Shown: positions 30,912 to 38,164, counted from the stretch's first letter. The stretch is DNA of 64,000 nt from an uncultured candidatus Porisulfidus sp. (GCA_965215125.1 OZ244052.1:1248001-1312000); one strand, 5' to 3'. The notes: generated by a model not told the origin, from the sequence alone. Numbers and translations are program-made.

Positions 30912-30981
30912 AATCGATCTCCTTGAGTTAAACGGTATTTTCGATGTTCCATAATATCATAATTAGTATCGTTCACTCATT

Positions 30982-31100
30982 GGGAATTATATAGATAACT
31001 TGACAGATTTATTAGACCGCCTTGCTACCCTATCTTTTTGACGCTTCACAGACCAGCCAACGCTGCAATCTCCACGCCCGGTTGCGGTATTCCCGACCGC
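30982..31100 (-). ncRNA. Predicted omega-RNA scaffold overlapping the tnpB 3' end (copy 1)
   Basis: Hairpin GCGGU/ACCGC with loop CGGGAAU; hairpin CAGC/GCUG; block UGAAGCGUCAAAAAGAUAGGGU shared with copy 2. Confidence 0.55.
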
Positions 31101-32195
31101 CAAAATGTTTAATGCAGCATTGACATCTGCATTGTCCTCGTGTCCGCAGTGCCGACACTTGAATATCGCTTGTGTTTTGCGGTTCGCTTTATCTACGCTT
31201 CTGCACTTGTTGCAGGTTTGACTTGTATATGCTGGATTGACCTTTCCTACATATGCTTTGTAGCTTAAGCATTGCTCCAGTTTATACCAGCCACTCTTTA
31301 GTATCTCTCTGTTCAAACCTGACTTCGCTCCCACATTCTTGCCCGGGCTGTCTATCGTCCCCTTCGCCGACTTCGTCATGCCTGCTGTATTCAGTCCTTC
31401 CATATAGACGATGTCGTATTTGTCCGCTATTAGCTTGCTGGTTTTATGACACCAATTCGCCCTCGTAAATCGCTCCGCTTGATACGCTTTCTGTAATTTA
31501 TACTTCGCTAGCTTACGCCTGTTGCTTCCCTTAACCCGTCTAACAACCATTCGCTGATAACGCTTGCGTCTTGCTTCCTTACGCTGTAAGTCGGGTAGGT
31601 AATACATGGTCCCGTCCGACAATGCTATCTGTCCCACATTCCTATCCAAACCCACTTCCTTTAGCATCTGCGATTTGTCCGCTAGCTCCACTTCATAGCA
31701 AATATATGCATACCAATTACCACATTCATACTTGACTTGACCCGATACAAACTTCTCACCTTTATACCTATCACCACCGGCAAACTTCATCCAGCCTACC
31801 TTCTGTATATACAAGTGACAACCCGATAGTTTTGCCGATTGATAATTGATTGGGAATGACGGGCTATGCGTATATTTGCCGTGAAACTTCGGCAATCCGT
31901 TGTTGCTCTTGAAAAATCCTTTGTATGCTATCTCTATCGGTTGTAATGATGATTTCACGATATAAGCGGAATAACCTTGCAACCACTTGTCGCAATGCTT
32001 TCGCAATGTCGTAAATTGCTTGCCTAGGGTGAAAAAGCTAAACCGGCTCTCGCCATAATACTCGTATTCATCCTTTAACTCAGCTACAAAGTGATTCCAA
32101 ACATAACGACACGCTCCGGCAGTTCCGTGTAATTGCCGATGCTTTTCATAGGTCGCTGGATACAAGCGATATCTGATTGTTCTATGAGTTTTCAT
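30987..32195 (-). CDS. tnpB: RNA-guided endonuclease TnpB
   Basis: N-terminal YRLYP...GACRYVWN; RuvC-I GLDRN, RuvC-II YMEGL, zinc finger CNKC/CRHC, RuvC-III NADVNAA. Confidence 0.93.
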   Translation of the reverse strand: MKTHRTIRYRLYPATYEKHRQLHGTAGACRYVWNHFVAELKDEYEYYGESRFSFFTLGKQFTTLRKHCDKWLQGYSAYIVKSSLQPIEIAYKGFFKSNNGLPKFHGKYTHSPSFPINYQSAKLSGCHLYIQKVGWMKFAGGDRYKGEKFVSGQVKYECGNWYAYICYEVELADKSQMLKEVGLDRNVGQIALSDGTMYYLPDLQRKEARRKRYQRMVVRRVKGSNRRKLAKYKLQKAYQAERFTRANWCHKTSKLIADKYDIVYMEGLNTAGMTKSAKGTIDSPGKNVGAKSGLNREILKSGWYKLEQCLSYKAYVGKVNPAYTSQTCNKCRSVDKANRKTQAIFKCRHCGHEDNADVNAALNILAVGNTATGRGDCSVGWSVKRQKDRVARRSNKSVKLSI

Positions 32196-32308
32196 CGATG
32201 TAATTTAACATTTCTTTGTCAAGTTATCTATATAATTCCCCACTCATTTATCCGAGAATTATATACTTTAAGTATGTAAATCATGTTTTACCGATTTCCA
32301 CTTTGTTT

Positions 32309-33102
32309 TTAGTTCCTTTTAAGCCACTTACATGCTAATCCATAAGTTGTAACTTGAGGCTCAACATTCTTCTTAGGGTGGATATTAGATTTTAGTATCT
32401 CAAATACAGGTTCGCTATCTAACCTAAACTTGATTTGTTTATAATGGCTTTTGCTATCATGTCTATCCTCAATCTGCCCTATTTGCTTATTATGCAATAA
32501 TGAAAAAAACACTACTTTTTGATCATCCATTTGTTTACTGTGCCTGGCTTTAGAATTGCGGAGCGAGACATTAGTGCATAAAGTGTCAACTACTTTATTC
32601 TTGTGGAATACATGAAAATGTTTTTTCTCTTTCAAGTCTTTTGCGAGACCAGGATATATACTAAGATAATCGGCATTCCCACCATCAAATAATGCCTTAG
32701 CAAGTAATGATGCTAACATTTTTGGTTTGTTTAACTCTTCTAAGAGTCTTCTCATGTGTGGCTGAAGTCGTAGCTTTGCAGCTGTTTTATTAGAAAGATA
32801 TTCATCATAAGTTGTTGGGTATGCATCAAGACAATCAATCATTATGTTTGCAATGTTCCCTAATCCTTGAAAGATAGTGTTAGTTTTAAGGCGATTTTAC
32901 TGTATAAGAAAATCTGCCACCGCTCCCCAGCTTTTACTGAGTGATACCTGTCTTGTTCATCCGCAACATCTTTTTTGTCTGTATGATGCCCTCTTTGTAC
33001 ATGACCACCAATTAGTTCAGCAAAATGCTCTTCATTTGCATGCCCAGCTCTTTTTACCATGCTTGCGTGTTCGCTGGTCATAGCTCTTCGTTTGGGCATC
33101 AT
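32309..33102 (-). pseudogene. Putative type II restriction endonuclease, split by a frameshift
   Basis: Overlaps the MTase stop; adding one A at the 32895-32898 run joins the 80-aa and 177-aa ORFs (YSKNRLKTNTIFQGLGNIANIMIDC); D..D...SVK PD-(D/E)xK-like motif. Confidence 0.65.
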
Positions 33103-34025
33103 CCCAACACCAAGAGTTCATGTGAATGTTTTATATGATTGTTTGTTCCGTTCTCTATTCTATTCTTACCTATCCTTGTTTCACCTTGCCCTAGGGTGTA
33201 TTGCCACTTTACTTCTATAATATTAAAATCAGAATACCAGTCTCTTATCGTCTCACAATCATTATATGAAAGAATAAACCCGCCCTCATGCTGATATAAT
33301 AAATCGCGCAACAGTTCATGATTGAATTGGTTATGGTGAACAGGGAAGTTTCTTTGTGGATATATTCCCTTAAACATCTTGCTATTACCATTCAAATAAT
33401 AAGGGGGGTCACAATACATGAACGAATCTATGTGTTGAGGTATAGTTCTACTAAAGTTCCCCGAACATACCGATAGATTGGGACAAGTGAAGTTTCTAAC
33501 TTTATCAAGCAACCTAATATATCTGCTCTCTTCTTCGTATATTTTTGACATCCAACCTAAAAAACCAGGTCCGTAAGATAGATTATGATTAAACCAATAA
33601 TGGGCAGCTAAAGATACTTTGTCCTCTATTTTTTGTGACTTGTCCCAATGCTTACGAAGTCTGTTCTTTACTTGTGAATATTTACTCTTTGTTGGTTTCC
33701 ATTTGCACAAGCGGCTATATAGTTCTAATGGTTTCTTTAGTTGTATTTGCCAGTAATTTGTTAATATATTGAAAACATCATAACCTTTGACTTTTAACCC
33801 TAGCTCTTTGGCGCAAGCAATTTCAACACTTCCACCACCAAAAAACGGAGATACTAATGAAGTAATATCAGGTGGCAGATGTTCTATTATGTGTCCAACA
33901 GCAAGGGTTTTACCACCAGCATATCGCAATGGTAGCCCATTATACCTAGAATACTTATATTTGCCTTTTCCATTAAGCCTATTTAATAAAAGGCTTTGCC
34001 TAGTGTCCGGCTTTAATGCAAACAT
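33099..34025 (-). CDS. Dam-like (D12 class) N6-adenine DNA methyltransferase
   Basis: LRYAGGK, SPFFGGGSV, DPPY, LSYND. Confidence 0.9.
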   Translation of the reverse strand: MFALKPDTRQSLLLNRLNGKGKYKYSRYNGLPLRYAGGKTLAVGHIIEHLPPDITSLVSPFFGGGSVEIACAKELGLKVKGYDVFNILTNYWQIQLKKPLELYSRLCKWKPTKSKYSQVKNRLRKHWDKSQKIEDKVSLAAHYWFNHNLSYGPGFLGWMSKIYEEESRYIRLLDKVRNFTCPNLSVCSGNFSRTIPQHIDSFMYCDPPYYLNGNSKMFKGIYPQRNFPVHHNQFNHELLRDLLYQHEGGFILSYNDCETIRDWYSDFNIIEVKWQYTLGQGETRIGKNRIENGTNNHIKHSHELLVLG

Positions 34026-34054
34026 GGTGACTACTTTATCAGTTTTTTATAAAG

Positions 34055-34440
34055 TTAATCTCTTGCCTCACGGACACGCCGAAGCATAAACCAAAACGAC
34101 TTCTGAGTAATACCTAGTTCCTTTGATAGCTGTAAAGACGATATACCCTTTCGCGCGGTCACTACCAAATAAATCGCTATATCCCAGCATTGCAAAGGTA
34201 GTAGCGATCTGTTCATTTCGCTATCGGTTTTTATCGTAAATGCTCTGCGACAACGATTGCAGTAATGATTGTACTTTCTAGGTTTGTATATTTTAACCTT
34301 CTCTATTTTTTTACATTTAGGACAGATAGGTTTGCTTCCCAAATCACACCTTCAATCTACCTAACTGCTTTTGTTTCAGTAGAAAATATTTTAAGTAATT
34401 CAGCTATGCTGATTGTTTGAGTCGTGTGTTTCAATTTCAT
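34055..34440 (-). pseudogene. IS1595-family transposase N-terminal remnant
   Basis: ISIAELLKIFSTE...*, frameshift, then PICPKC...CNRC zinc ribbon and RKGISSLQLSKELGITQKS.WFML.R.REA; DDE domain missing. Confidence 0.85.
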
Positions 34441-34559
34441 CTCCATATTTTGCATACTAAAATATCAAAAATGGAAATAGTGTCAAGTGTCTTACAGATT
34501 TTATTTTCAATATTTTTAGTAGGATTTTTACATACTTAAGTATATGATTCTATTTATTT

Positions 34560-35420
34560 TTAACGGGGTGTGTCGGTTTTTGCGTTTTTCCATCGCCAGC
34601 GAGGTTGTCCCCAATACCAGTTTGCAGGAGCCTGTTTTAAGCCTTGTGCTAACTTTTGCGTGTATGATGTCAGCAAGGCTCTTTCGTGTCCTTCGCCTTG
34701 GTTTTCAATAGGTTCAAGATAGATTCTATAATATCCCTTTTTAATTTTTTCGGTTCTTACGAAGAACACAGCGCATTGTGCCGTGCAGGCAAGCTGTGCG
34801 GTGCCCGAGTAAAAATCGGTATGTTGTCCTCCTAGCCATTTCAATTCAATGGATTTTTGGTGACGATCGGGTTCACGGTCCGATAATACATAAAAAAAGC
34901 ATCGTTGCTTGCGATGTTTTACTAGCGTTTTCACAAATTGTTTATGGGGTAGCGGCGTGCCACCGAAGCAGCTTCTTATGGTATACACCAAACGCTCCAG
35001 ATGAGGCGATCTTAGGGGTTTGTAGACACCGTAGAAAGGATGCCCGCAATGCAAAAATAGTACTTGAGCCGCCCATTCCCAGTTGCTTTGATGGCTGGAT
35101 AATAACAGCACCGGTCGGTTTGTATCGACATCGTCTAAGAGGTCGGGATTCATCAAACGAGCACGCTTTTGCAACCATTGTTTTCTGCACGATAACAGTT
35201 TCACCGTTTCAACCAAAAACTCGGTTTGTAAGAAATAATATCTTCTGCATAAAGCACGAATCTCGTTTGCGTCATACTCGGGGAATGCTCCGTACAGATT
35301 ATTTAATACTACCGTACGTTTAGCGCGTAGGATATAGCAATTAAAGGCGGCTAATAACCAAGCAATCGCATAGAGCAACGATAACGGCAGGCGAGATATA
35401 AGAACAGCTAAGCGCATCAT
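34560..35420 (-). CDS. Lipid A biosynthesis acyltransferase (LpxL/HtrB family)
   Basis: HQSNWE, YKPL, LSD, P.NWYW...RW. Confidence 0.85.
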   Translation of the reverse strand: MMRLAVLISRLPLSLLYAIAWLLAAFNCYILRAKRTVVLNNLYGAFPEYDANEIRALCRRYYFLQTEFLVETVKLLSCRKQWLQKRARLMNPDLLDDVDTNRPVLLLSSHQSNWEWAAQVLFLHCGHPFYGVYKPLRSPHLERLVYTIRSCFGGTPLPHKQFVKTLVKHRKQRCFFYVLSDREPDRHQKSIELKWLGGQHTDFYSGTAQLACTAQCAVFFVRTEKIKKGYYRIYLEPIENQGEGHERALLTSYTQKLAQGLKQAPANWYWGQPRWRWKNAKTDTPR

Positions 35421-35649
35421 TTGTTATATTTTAAGCCATAGCGGTTTGCGCAAAGTGATTTTTATTGCAACCCGATGAATAGGCAGCTATTGGTTTGGGA
35501 AATCCTATAGGTGGGGTATTTACCGGCGAGTTTTTGTATGTATAACGCTTTTGAGCATAGAAAATTGTCTGTTCGTATTGAATCATCGTCGTTTAACTGG
35601 TATATTCATCAATACTTTTTCACAACTTAACAAAAAGGAGGATATTATA

Positions 35650-36012
35650 ATGAGTGAAGCAAGTTTATACGAACGCCTAGGCGGACCGGATAAAATACGC
35701 GAGATTTGTACGGATATATACGATAACCATGCAAGCAACCCTAGAATTAAGAGTCGCTTCGTGGATAGTAATCGTGATGAAGTTATCCAGAGAGTCTGGG
35801 AATTTTTCTGTTCCGGTATCGGCGGACCCGAAAGCTATAGCGGCCAAGATATGAAGACTGCACATCGCGGGATGAATATCGCTGCCGATGAGTTTGTAGA
35901 GGTCTGCGATGATGTCATCGCAGCCTTAGATAAACATAATGTCGGGCAAAAAGAGAAAGACGAAGTGCTGTGCATTTTGTATTCTATGAAACCCGATATC
36001 GTCGGTGGCTAA
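35650..36012 (+). CDS. Group 1 truncated hemoglobin
   Basis: SLYERLGG, GGPESYSGQDM..AH.GMNI; AAGGAGG RBS. Confidence 0.92.
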   Translation: MSEASLYERLGGPDKIREICTDIYDNHASNPRIKSRFVDSNRDEVIQRVWEFFCSGIGGPESYSGQDMKTAHRGMNIAADEFVEVCDDVIAALDKHNVGQKEKDEVLCILYSMKPDIVGG

Positions 36013-36119
36013 AGCCTCGATATAAAAACTGCCCTAGCCATGGAGTATTTAAGTCCACAACATAGTTAAACTATGTTCATTATTTATGGAGGGAGGCTAG
36101 GGTCAGCTTAAGCGAACCG

Positions 36120-37394
36120 ATGGAGTGGCAGGTTTCACAGTACCCTCGATTATCGGCACAAACCGTTGAGTTTGCTAATAAGCTAACTCATAAAGCATCA
36201 AACCATTTAGAATTTATCTCGGGTGGGCAGCCGTATGTGCTATGCCCCGATACCACAGTACCGTCTGCCGAGTTTCCTGCCGCCGTGCAGTGCAGTATCA
36301 ACGGACACAGTGTGCGGTTCGGTCTTGATTCCGGTGTGTGCGCTTTCCTGTTGTCGGATTGGCTACCGCTAGAGGATGTTGCGGCGTTGCCGGATAATTT
36401 GAAAAAATCGGTCATAATAGCCGTCTTAAATCCAATTGCCGATTTTTTTTCTCAACATTCCGTCGGAAGTTTTAATGTGGAAGACATTGAATGTCAATCT
36501 GCCTATCCGTCCCACTCAAGTTTATTTTTTAACCTATCGTCCATGAACGGAACTGTAGTTGGTCGGATATTTGTCAATGTTGATGAGCAAACGACGGACA
36601 TGCTACATAAAATATGGCAGGCTACTGCGAAACCTGCACCGCTCGGCAATACCGAAGAATTACCTGTTTGGGTTGAAGTTATTGCTGCCGGCACAAAGCT
36701 GAGCTTGAATGAATTTAGTGAATTAAGGAAAGACGATATTATTTTGCTCGATATGGCATTTTCGGAACTAAAAGAAGTCTATGCTAGAATTAGTGATAAT
36801 ATATGCTTTTCATCCGTAATTGATGGAAACAAGTTAATAATTCAAAAACCGGGAGGGGTCGTAATGGCAAGTGACACACAACCGCCGATAGACCGAAATA
36901 TTGAAGATCAGGCAATTGATGAAGAGATTGCCTTAGGCGAAGACCAAATGCCATTTTCTAATGAAGACGAACCCGACGAGGAATCGTTGGATGAGCCTTC
37001 TATGGGTGCGGAAAATTCCGACGAGGAATCGCTGGATGCGTCTTCTGTGGAAACAGAAAATTCTGTTGAAGAGCCTTTTGATACACTACTTTCCGGCGAG
37101 ACATCCCCAGCTGTATCCGAGGCTGCCGATAGCAAACGAACCGTCTCTCAATTGAACGATCTAGGAGAGTTGCCGGTAGAATTGTTGTTCATCGTAGATC
37201 AATTCAAGACGACCGTGAAAGAGGTTGAGCGTATCAAGCCGGGCTATGTATTTGAATTGAAAAATAAAGCGATAGGGCAAGCCGAGATTCGTGCCAACGG
37301 GACACTCATCGGTGTCGGTGAGTTGGTACAAATCGAGGACCGTGCGGGCGTGCGCGTCATAAAGTTGTACGGACAGACGAATACCGAAAAATGA
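36120..37394 (+). CDS. sctQ: T3SS cytoplasmic ring protein SctQ (YscQ family)
   Basis: Two SPOA domains (ELPVWVEV; ELPVEL...ANG.LIGVGELVQI...GVRV); upstream of sctRSTU. Confidence 0.85.
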   Translation: MEWQVSQYPRLSAQTVEFANKLTHKASNHLEFISGGQPYVLCPDTTVPSAEFPAAVQCSINGHSVRFGLDSGVCAFLLSDWLPLEDVAALPDNLKKSVIIAVLNPIADFFSQHSVGSFNVEDIECQSAYPSHSSLFFNLSSMNGTVVGRIFVNVDEQTTDMLHKIWQATAKPAPLGNTEELPVWVEVIAAGTKLSLNEFSELRKDDIILLDMAFSELKEVYARISDNICFSSVIDGNKLIIQKPGGVVMASDTQPPIDRNIEDQAIDEEIALGEDQMPFSNEDEPDEESLDEPSMGAENSDEESLDASSVETENSVEEPFDTLLSGETSPAVSEAADSKRTVSQLNDLGELPVELLFIVDQFKTTVKEVERIKPGYVFELKNKAIGQAEIRANGTLIGVGELVQIEDRAGVRVIKLYGQTNTEK

Positions 37395-37513
37395 CTAATC
37401 AACCACTGCCGGTGGCAAAGTGCTACTTAATTAAAAGACGACACTAGTCGCATGATAAAGGGGGGGAAATTCTTGTATATACTCGTTGAGCGAGCTTGTG
37501 GAGGGGACTTCTG

Positions 37514-38164
37514 ATGGAAGGTCTGCCTTCTCCTTTTACGTTAATCCTGATTATAGGTGCGATAGGGATCATGCCGTTTGTGATTGTTATGGCAACTTCT
37601 TTTGCCAAGTTAGTTATAGTCTTTTCATTGATACGCAACGCTTTGGGTATTCAACAAATACCTCCGAATACGGCTTTGAACGGTTTGGCTCTGATATTAA
37701 CGGTATATATCATGATGCCGGTCGTTATCGCAAGCTACGAAGTTATTGCGAGGGAAGACCTACGCTTGGACGATAAAGAGTCGGTAATACAGGTTTTTAA
37801 GGAGGCGTCGGAACCGTATCGCAACTTTCTGCGCAAACACAGCGACCCTAGAGAGAGAGAGTTTTTTATGGAGACTGCATACAATTTGTGGGGATACGAA
37901 CATGTAGAGGAAATGACGGAAGACAATTTATTAATTCTAATGCCGTCTTTCACCGTGAGCGAGTTGACCACTGCCTTTGAAATAGGTTTTTTAATTTACC
38001 TGCCGTTTATAGTTATAGACTTGATCGTGTCCAATATCCTTTTGGCGATGGGTATGATGATGGTCTCACCGATGACTATATCCTTGCCGTTCAAGCTACT
38101 TTTGTTTGTTTTTCTTGACGGCTGGACCTATCTTATTCACGGTTTGGTGCTTTCTTATCAATAG
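37514..38164 (+). CDS. sctR: T3SS export apparatus SctR
   Basis: TSFAKL, RNALGIQQIPPN, LAMGMMMVSPMTISLPFKLLLFV; lacks the FliP signal peptide. Confidence 0.93.
   Translation: MEGLPSPFTLILIIGAIGIMPFVIVMATSFAKLVIVFSLIRNALGIQQIPPNTALNGLALILTVYIMMPVVIASYEVIAREDLRLDDKESVIQVFKEASEPYRNFLRKHSDPREREFFMETAYNLWGYEHVEEMTEDNLLILMPSFTVSELTTAFEIGFLIYLPFIVIDLIVSNILLAMGMMMVSPMTISLPFKLLLFVFLDGWTYLIHGLVLSYQ

Follow-up and report, generated by a model that had tools for sequence, protein, structure and literature searches.

A stretch of 64,000 nucleotides from the genome of an uncultured candidatus Porisulfidus sp. (GCA_965215125.1 OZ244052.1:1248001-1312000), referred to here as the window, carries at positions 32254-34551 an element that is very probably a non-autonomous, decayed transporter insertion sequence (transporter IS, or tIS) of the IS1595 family. 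Its passengers, a DNA methylase gene (M) and a restriction endonuclease gene (R), lie between a remnant of the transposase gene and the far end, and we call it the restriction-modification (RM) element. Its features are given below from right to left, the direction in which its genes are read, with the basis of each in parentheses; IS-C is an intact IS of the congeneric genome G004, and L009 is a close relative.

32254-34551, every gene on the minus strand: RM element, very probably a decayed tIS
34552-34559: putative target duplication, right copy ATTTATTT (read from the sequence)
34525-34551, minus strand: right inverted end, on the transposase side (repeat arms; DNA identity to IS-C)
34459-34486, minus strand: putative promoter-like site, TTGACA, 16 nt, TG-TATTTT, upstream of the transposase remnant
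34055-34445, minus strand: IS1595 transposase remnant, N-terminal zinc-ribbon/helix-turn-helix part only (NCBIfam match and IS-C alignment)
33099-34025, minus strand: D12-class N6-adenine DNA methyltransferase, intact, 308 aa (PF02086, E 3.6e-33, full length)
32309-33102, minus strand: type II restriction endonuclease gene, split over two frames (homologues, comparison with L009, predicted fold)
32254-32281, plus strand: left inverted end, distal to the transposase (repeat arms; alignment to the ends of IS-C)
32246-32253: putative target duplication, left copy ATTTATCC, weak (read from the sequence)

The inverted ends are about 27 nt long and consist of two abutting pairs of arms detected by a repeat search, one of 14 nt with 93% identity (32255-32268 and 34538-34551) and one of 13 nt with 100% identity (32268-32280 and 34527-34539), the two pairs being offset by one 1-nt indel; the imperfect terminal repeats of about 26 bp described in the original prediction are thus borne out. 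The 13-mer arm has two exact occurrences in the window, one per strand, where 100 shuffles give an expectation of 0.00. The motif GRGAATTATATA occurs five times against 0.03 expected, and these five sites are both ends of both TnpB elements of the window and the left end of the RM element. The likeness between the RM-element ends and the TnpB ends is confined to the terminal 12 nt (11 of 12 identical), whereas the ends of IS-C align with those of the RM element over about 25 nt; termini of the GGGAATTATATA type are common to 18 other ends as well. The relatedness to the TnpB ends claimed in the original prediction therefore stands for the terminal 12 nt but not further in, where the RM-element sequence is that of IS-C and the inner parts of the RM and TnpB ends come from different IS lineages. 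The TTGACA hexamer at 34486-34481 begins the best promoter-like match of the region (10 of 12 positions, with a TG-extended second hexamer), and the site is also conserved in IS-C.

The transposase remnant is matched by NCBIfam model NF033547 with an E-value of 1.9e-10 and a score of 41 bits, under the 75-bit cut-off because only a fragment of the transposase is left. IS-C is 1410 bp long and present in two identical copies in G004, with ends GGGAACTATATACTTAAGTATGCAA and flanking 8-bp duplications GTGATTT(T). Aligned to it, the remnant has three lesions: an in-frame stop codon (TGG to TAG), a 1-nt deletion and the loss of the 3' part, nothing being left beyond about residue 128, so that the entire DDE catalytic domain is deleted. 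Window positions 34065-34545, which take in the remnant and the right end, are 79% identical to IS-C at the DNA level, and the remnant is 84% identical in protein to the 325-aa open frame of IS-C, the DDE domain of which matches PF12762 with an E-value of 6.3e-43. By its resemblance, the remnant may belong to an ISNwi1-like subgroup.

A complete version of such an element, 3926 bp long and with transposase, methylase and nuclease in that order, is found in L022, an alphaproteobacterial metagenome-assembled genome (MAG) of the Paracoccaceae. Its ends, GGGGATTATATAC and TTTGAATACCCAA, lie at 2964 and 6889 and are identical at 24 of 26 positions, and it is flanked by a perfect 8/8 duplication, ATTATTTT. 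The transposase is a full-length IS1595 enzyme (PF12762 3.3e-33, PF12760 1.2e-7), and its stop codon overlaps the start of the D12 methylase gene, whose product (PF02086 5.8e-34) is 70% identical to that of the window. Cargo-less IS copies of 1596 bp in the same MAG have the same ends as the complete element. The L022 element also contains a gene for a DUF7946/DUF7947 protein, on the opposite strand (L022 3073-3855, minus). In the congener G002 a C-terminal transposase fragment is followed by M (92% identical to that of the window), R (74%) and an IS1595-type end, GGGAATTATATACTATTCTGCACA; in L050 an end-like motif comes directly after R, and in L048 a truncated transposase precedes M. The complete L022 element and the identity to IS-C uphold the original description of 32254-34551 as an IS1595-derived cargo element with restriction-modification genes.

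Of the two cargo genes, only that of the methylase is intact. Its DPPY and FGGG motifs can be read from the translation, chains of Dam-type methylases in the PDB match it with E-values of 2.4e-10 to 4e-6, and relatives at 64-83% identity occur in MAGs of many phyla. The nuclease gene has lost one A from a run of A at about 32894 relative to L009, in which the gene is open, encodes 264 aa and has a 4-nt overlap with the methylase gene. The frameshift allele is present in contigs of two sequencing runs from two studies (one of which may be the window's own source) and is therefore a real allele, not an assembly slip; two other runs contain the intact allele together with the single-nucleotide polymorphisms of L009. 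The longer of the two nuclease frames has 66 homologues, mostly of 255-265 aa and with no Pfam domain, and in an alignment of 24 of them D41, K42, D44, D47 and H53-S54-V55-K56 are invariant.

Searches of Pfam, NCBIfam and PDB sequence profiles gave nothing meaningful for the nuclease, and its class is suggested by structure prediction. A full-length homologue with 85% identity to the longer frame was modelled by AlphaFold, at a mean pLDDT of 92.5. Foldseek ranks HinP1I first for this model (E 3.4e-5, TM 0.53/0.56) and MspI second, and VIA, an independent search, gives HinP1I with Z 9.8 (root-mean-square deviation 3.7, 178 aligned), MspI with Z 8.3 and HhaI with Z 7.7, the next row being at Z 5.0. 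Because the modelled fold matches those of HinP1I, MspI and HhaI, the nuclease is predicted to be a type IIP-like restriction endonuclease. Sequence identity to these enzymes is only 13-17%, and they pair with C5 methylases, whereas the partner here is an adenine methylase, of the Pfam family to which the Dam-type (D12) enzymes also belong; the nuclease gene abuts the methylase gene in 31 of 80 methylase loci.

Not everything fits a single transposable unit so well, and much of what weighs against it would favour another explanation: that M and R were resident at the site, and that two independent IS1595 fragments, the start of a transposase gene and a solo end, landed on either side of them, without the whole ever having been one moving piece. 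The putative target duplication, ATTTATCC and ATTTATTT, is identical at only six of eight positions, and no empty site for the RM element was found among the 30 relatives searched. IS1595 traces are absent from most M-R loci, a transposase match lying within 5 kb of only four of the 80 methylase loci, and in L024 an IS1595 tIS adjoins the M-R pair instead of enclosing it. The nuclease accompanies the methylase in no more than the 31 loci mentioned above, and that of L022 is only 35-50% identical to that of the window. The inverted ends contain an indel, and the RM element is present in a single copy in its genome, with no sign of movement here. In G001 and G004 the flanks of the site are far apart, the homology on the left (ilvA) side ending at window position 30959 and that on the right (acyltransferase) side beginning at 34585, and insertion at the window site is therefore putative. 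Promoter-like sites in the region number 10 against 9.3 in shuffles, which is not above chance; the TTGACA promoter of the original prediction is a putative one, the best match of the region.

A resident M-R pair nevertheless seems very unlikely to us, since each end matches the other and also the two ends of a single IS type, IS-C; the order transposase, M, R, end recurs in L022, with overlapping stop and start codons; an end is found just after R in G002, L022 and L050; and many other RM systems lie inside the same kind of ends. Still further from the evidence, and almost certainly wrong, is the idea that AT-rich DNA has produced the inverted ends by chance and that nothing more than an RM islet lies here beside a pseudogene. 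The surrounding 4 kb does contain many inverted pairs of 13-20 nt, but the shuffles give an expectation of 0.00 for the 13-mer arm, and the alignment with an intact IS of a congener runs over about 25 nt.

One further alternative concerns the size of the mobile unit. Two mobile elements, 13 bp apart, are found at this locus, with ilvA and a small membrane-protein gene as left neighbours and a lipid A acyltransferase gene (PF03279) as right neighbour; the RM element is one of them, and the other is the first of the two TnpB elements of the window:

30982-32240, minus strand: TnpB element 1 (perfect 24-nt inverted ends and 8-bp duplication)
43209-44477, strand not assigned: TnpB element 2 (flanking duplication copies, and empty sites in congeners)

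The entire block 30982-34551 differs from L009 by 20 mismatches in 3570 bp (99.4% identity), while its flanks are 75-93% identical. So high an identity between two species, with a changeover no more than about 40-90 bp from the outer ends, might mean that the 3.57-kb block moves as a whole, either as a composite transposon for which the outermost ends serve or through TnpB-guided homing into empty alleles. The high identity overruns both outer ends, however: it continues for about 36 bp on the left and, on the right, for about 90 bp, as far as the final acyltransferase codons, which is what ordinary homologous recombination would give; moreover, each element has a separate duplication, the outer ends diverge beyond 12 nt, and the genome contains the block only once. 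Movement of the block as one transposable unit is for these reasons very unlikely, and the pattern fits homologous recombination between two species that recently brought in the RM element together with TnpB element 1 (L009 and G003, possibly one genome, being counted once).

The 13-bp distance between the RM element and TnpB element 1 and the overlap of their target sites, both noted in the original prediction, are confirmed: the putative left duplication of the RM element shares 3 bp with the duplication of TnpB element 1, a perfect 8-bp CACTCATT at 30974-81 and 32241-48. In L009 the copy of the RM element has received a further IS1595-family IS of about 753-761 bp (L009 3761-4513) at the position of window 34504, with perfect 21-nt ends, a TATTGAAA duplication and a transposase of about 230 aa. 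No copy of this small IS was found in the window's own genome, where PF12762 finds only two IS copies of 1294 bp. The close spacing, the L009 insertion and the break in synteny in G001 and G004 mark the spot as a permissive, IS-prone junction; for the insertion hotspot that had been proposed, a few adjacent insertions give weak support, though not for a mechanism.

Taking the RM element as a decayed tIS, the ancestral unit would have been laid out as end, promoter, transposase, methylase, restriction enzyme and end, and read as one operon. The DDE transposase would have bound the inverted ends of about 25 nt and inserted the unit through a target cut staggered by 8 bp, while the methylase would have protected the host DNA, and the nuclease would have restricted unmethylated DNA and stabilized the unit by killing cells that lose it. 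Transposition by an IS1595 enzyme, expression as an operon, restriction and methylation activity and addiction are what we infer here. In the present copy the transposase is dead and the nuclease gene has its -1 frameshift; only the methylase is intact, and the unit therefore now acts at most as a solitary methylase.

The idea that the same transposase family also mobilizes TnpB receives its support from the TnpB elements themselves. The TnpB protein matches NF040570 (E 5e-58) and is in itself a member of the IS200/IS605 kind. The tnpB gene of element 1 ends 5 nt from the end of the element, which means that a guide-RNA scaffold, if there is one, has to take in the inverted end. TnpB element 2 is flanked by TAGCTAAT and TCGCTAAT, at 43201-08 and 44478-85, and in four of the four congeners searched its site is uninterrupted and contains a single TAGCTAAT; this shows directly that the element was inserted and that 8 bp of target were duplicated. 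The genome, a single contig of 2.22 Mb with 46% G+C, has by blastn-short six element-like pairs of GGGAATTATATAG-type ends, four of them enclosing 1259-1269 bp, one 1899 bp and one 588 bp; the flanking 8-mers agree at eight of eight positions for two pairs, at seven for three and at five for one. Besides the two elements in the window, these are:

Genome 965778-967676: IS1595-type end pair, TnpB-only cassette
Genome 1153214-1154472: IS1595-type end pair, TnpB-only cassette
Genome 1627104-1627691: IS1595-type end pair, TnpB-only cassette
Genome 1725104-1726371: IS1595-type end pair, TnpB-only cassette

Five further sites of the form G[AG]GAATTATATAC were not counted as elements, having no inverted partner within 8 kb. 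Four of them are intergenic, beside housekeeping genes, and may be promoter-like, since the reverse complement contains TATAAT. The fifth, at genome position 1127796, is a solo end, GAGAATTATATACTATTCTGTAC, of the end subtype found in G001 and G002. Beside it, at 1126820-1129170, are two divergent N4/N6 methylase genes and a 152-aa open reading frame (ORF), and this region is probably a second decayed RM-carrying element.

The only intact IS1595 transposases of the genome are those of the two 1294-bp copies, which are 99.8% identical, one of them with a perfect TCATTTTT duplication. Their ends are identical to the TnpB-element end at 22 of 27 positions, so that this genome's own intact IS1595 elements do have related ends, a point on which the original prediction might have failed. 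The autonomous IS of G001, IS-D, has a perfect 24-nt end, GGGAACTATATACTATTCTGCACA, and a TnpB cassette of the same genome has the end GGGAATTATATAC(C/A)ATTCTGCACA and the duplication CAATCAAT; the end subtype of these two recurs at the one surviving end of the G002 M-R unit. IS1595 DDE domains occur in 20 of 31 related genomes, including every listed genome with TnpB-element matches, although such relatives are not independent samples. For TnpB copies from the more distant relatives L192-L196 and from L187 blast detected no inverted ends; the element of L189 was resolved. The 8-bp duplications, the empty sites in all four congeners and the shared end subtype lend indirect support to one transposase family moving both RM and TnpB cargo.

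In having perfect 24-nt ends and 8-bp duplications, the TnpB elements of the window differ from IS200/IS605, a family with subterminal hairpins and a Y1 TnpA partner that has neither inverted ends nor target duplication. They have more in common with the TnpB-carrying ISL2, IS630 and IS1031 transposons and with those bearing Fanzor, which is reportedly carried by eukaryotic DDE transposons: these likewise combine an RNA-guided nuclease gene with inverted ends and target duplications, and not with hairpin ends of the IS605 type. The window cassettes are set apart from such known DDE carriers by their IS1595-type ends and by having no transposase of their own. One review states that IS200/IS605 elements make no target duplication and reports TnpB inside prokaryotic DDE transposons for ISL2, IS630 and IS1031, while IS1595 is named 0 times in it (PMC13565253). 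TnpB-only cassettes that have these ends, and clean empty sites, would add IS1595 to the short list of bacterial DDE carriers of RNA-guided nucleases, and an autonomous IS together with a TnpB cassette would make a simple pair of substrates for testing the IS1595-TnpB idea in the laboratory.

Relatives of the L022 transposase were sought in genome contigs, and the best 80 of 219 confirmed loci were examined. Nearly all are in MAGs of many phyla, with record titles that point to sponge symbionts. Inverted ends were found by blast at 63 of the 80 loci, nearly all starting GGG(G/A)ATTATATA, with a spacing of 1.5-5 kb that at most loci is far beyond the need of a 1-kb transposase gene; an exact 8-bp repeat lies directly outside the printed arms at 12 loci. 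The cargo was scanned in 31 of the loci, chosen so that each end type or genome was represented once, and two of these are cargo-less. A DNA methylase is present in 16 of the 29 with cargo, with a nuclease domain fused or adjacent in 11 of these 16, while the remaining 13 have no methylase match. The pairings include an N6_N4 methylase with HNH, an EcoRI-type methylase with GmrSD_N/HNH, a C5 methylase with an NgoFVII-like enzyme, and an N6_N4 or MT-A70 methylase with a BglII-like enzyme; in one methylase-carrying tIS there is a type I-like M-S fusion, and a nuclease domain is absent. Several tIS have a 1-4 nt overlap between the genes for transposase and methylase.

Some of these elements are present in large numbers. 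The EcoRI-type tIS of 3478 bp, with the GmrSD_N/HNH nuclease, has 21 full-length copies, 99.7-100% identical, in one Paracoccaceae MAG (L113-L133, L145), and at several of them, such as L115 and L129, the flanking 8-mers are swapped, which suggests inversions between copies. The MT-A70/BglII-like tIS of 2578 bp (L160-L168) occurs in four copies each in MAGs labelled Roseovarius and Limibaculum, the copies being 99.9-100% identical. One transposase family with recognizable ends is thus associated, across many phyla, with at least seven methylase/nuclease architectures in a compact transposase-M-R operon, sometimes in more than 20 copies per genome, and these relatives bear on the old question of how restriction-modification systems move.

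Known tIS include tISCpe8, MTnSag1, ISPna2+ and ISNwi1+. Those of the IS1595 family combine short inverted ends and an 8-bp duplication with one DDE transposase, which begins with a zinc ribbon, and with passengers between the transposase and the far end; this was probably also the design of the RM element, but the latter differs in being a dead copy and in carrying a type II RM pair and not a resistance gene. Transporter IS have been described as a class, reportedly limited to the IS1595 and IS66 families. RM units in Xanthomonas oryzae, as described by Furuta, Abe and Kobayashi 2010 (PMC2853133), have imperfect inverted repeats and an 8-bp target duplication; a transposase acting in trans could not be excluded for them, and RM or solitary M genes flanked by IS were reported there as well. 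The Xanthomonas repeats are 65 bp long and have not been compared with the ends described here; what differs in the present case is that the transposase family is identified and that complete autonomous forms exist in other genomes. The open-access literature, supplements excluded, yielded neither a paper on RM-carrying IS1595 tIS of sponge symbionts nor one on TnpB inside IS1595-type ends.

On its own the RM element is an ordinary decayed tIS, a textbook-style fossil that changes little, and the context provided by its relatives is of more interest. A broader view, which we put forward tentatively and consider somewhat less probable than its contrary, is that the IS1595 transposases of these symbionts serve a shared pool of inverted-end cassettes, either RM-loaded or TnpB-only, with a mutualism between RM pair and transposase, and with the TnpB cassettes as the bacterial counterpart of the Fanzor-bearing DDE transposons. 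That mutualism, in turn, would explain the 21-copy burst, as well as why MAGs bearing the names of different genera hold copies at 99.9% identity. The presumed guide-RNA scaffold would run into the inverted end, the guide then being the flanking target, and a transposon that leaves 8-bp duplications would thereby gain RNA-guided retention or homing.

Further right, past the acyltransferase gene, the translations of window positions 35551-38164 include a small globin-like ORF, as well as genes that resemble parts of type III secretion or flagellar export systems (SctQ/FliN-like and SctR/FliP-like).

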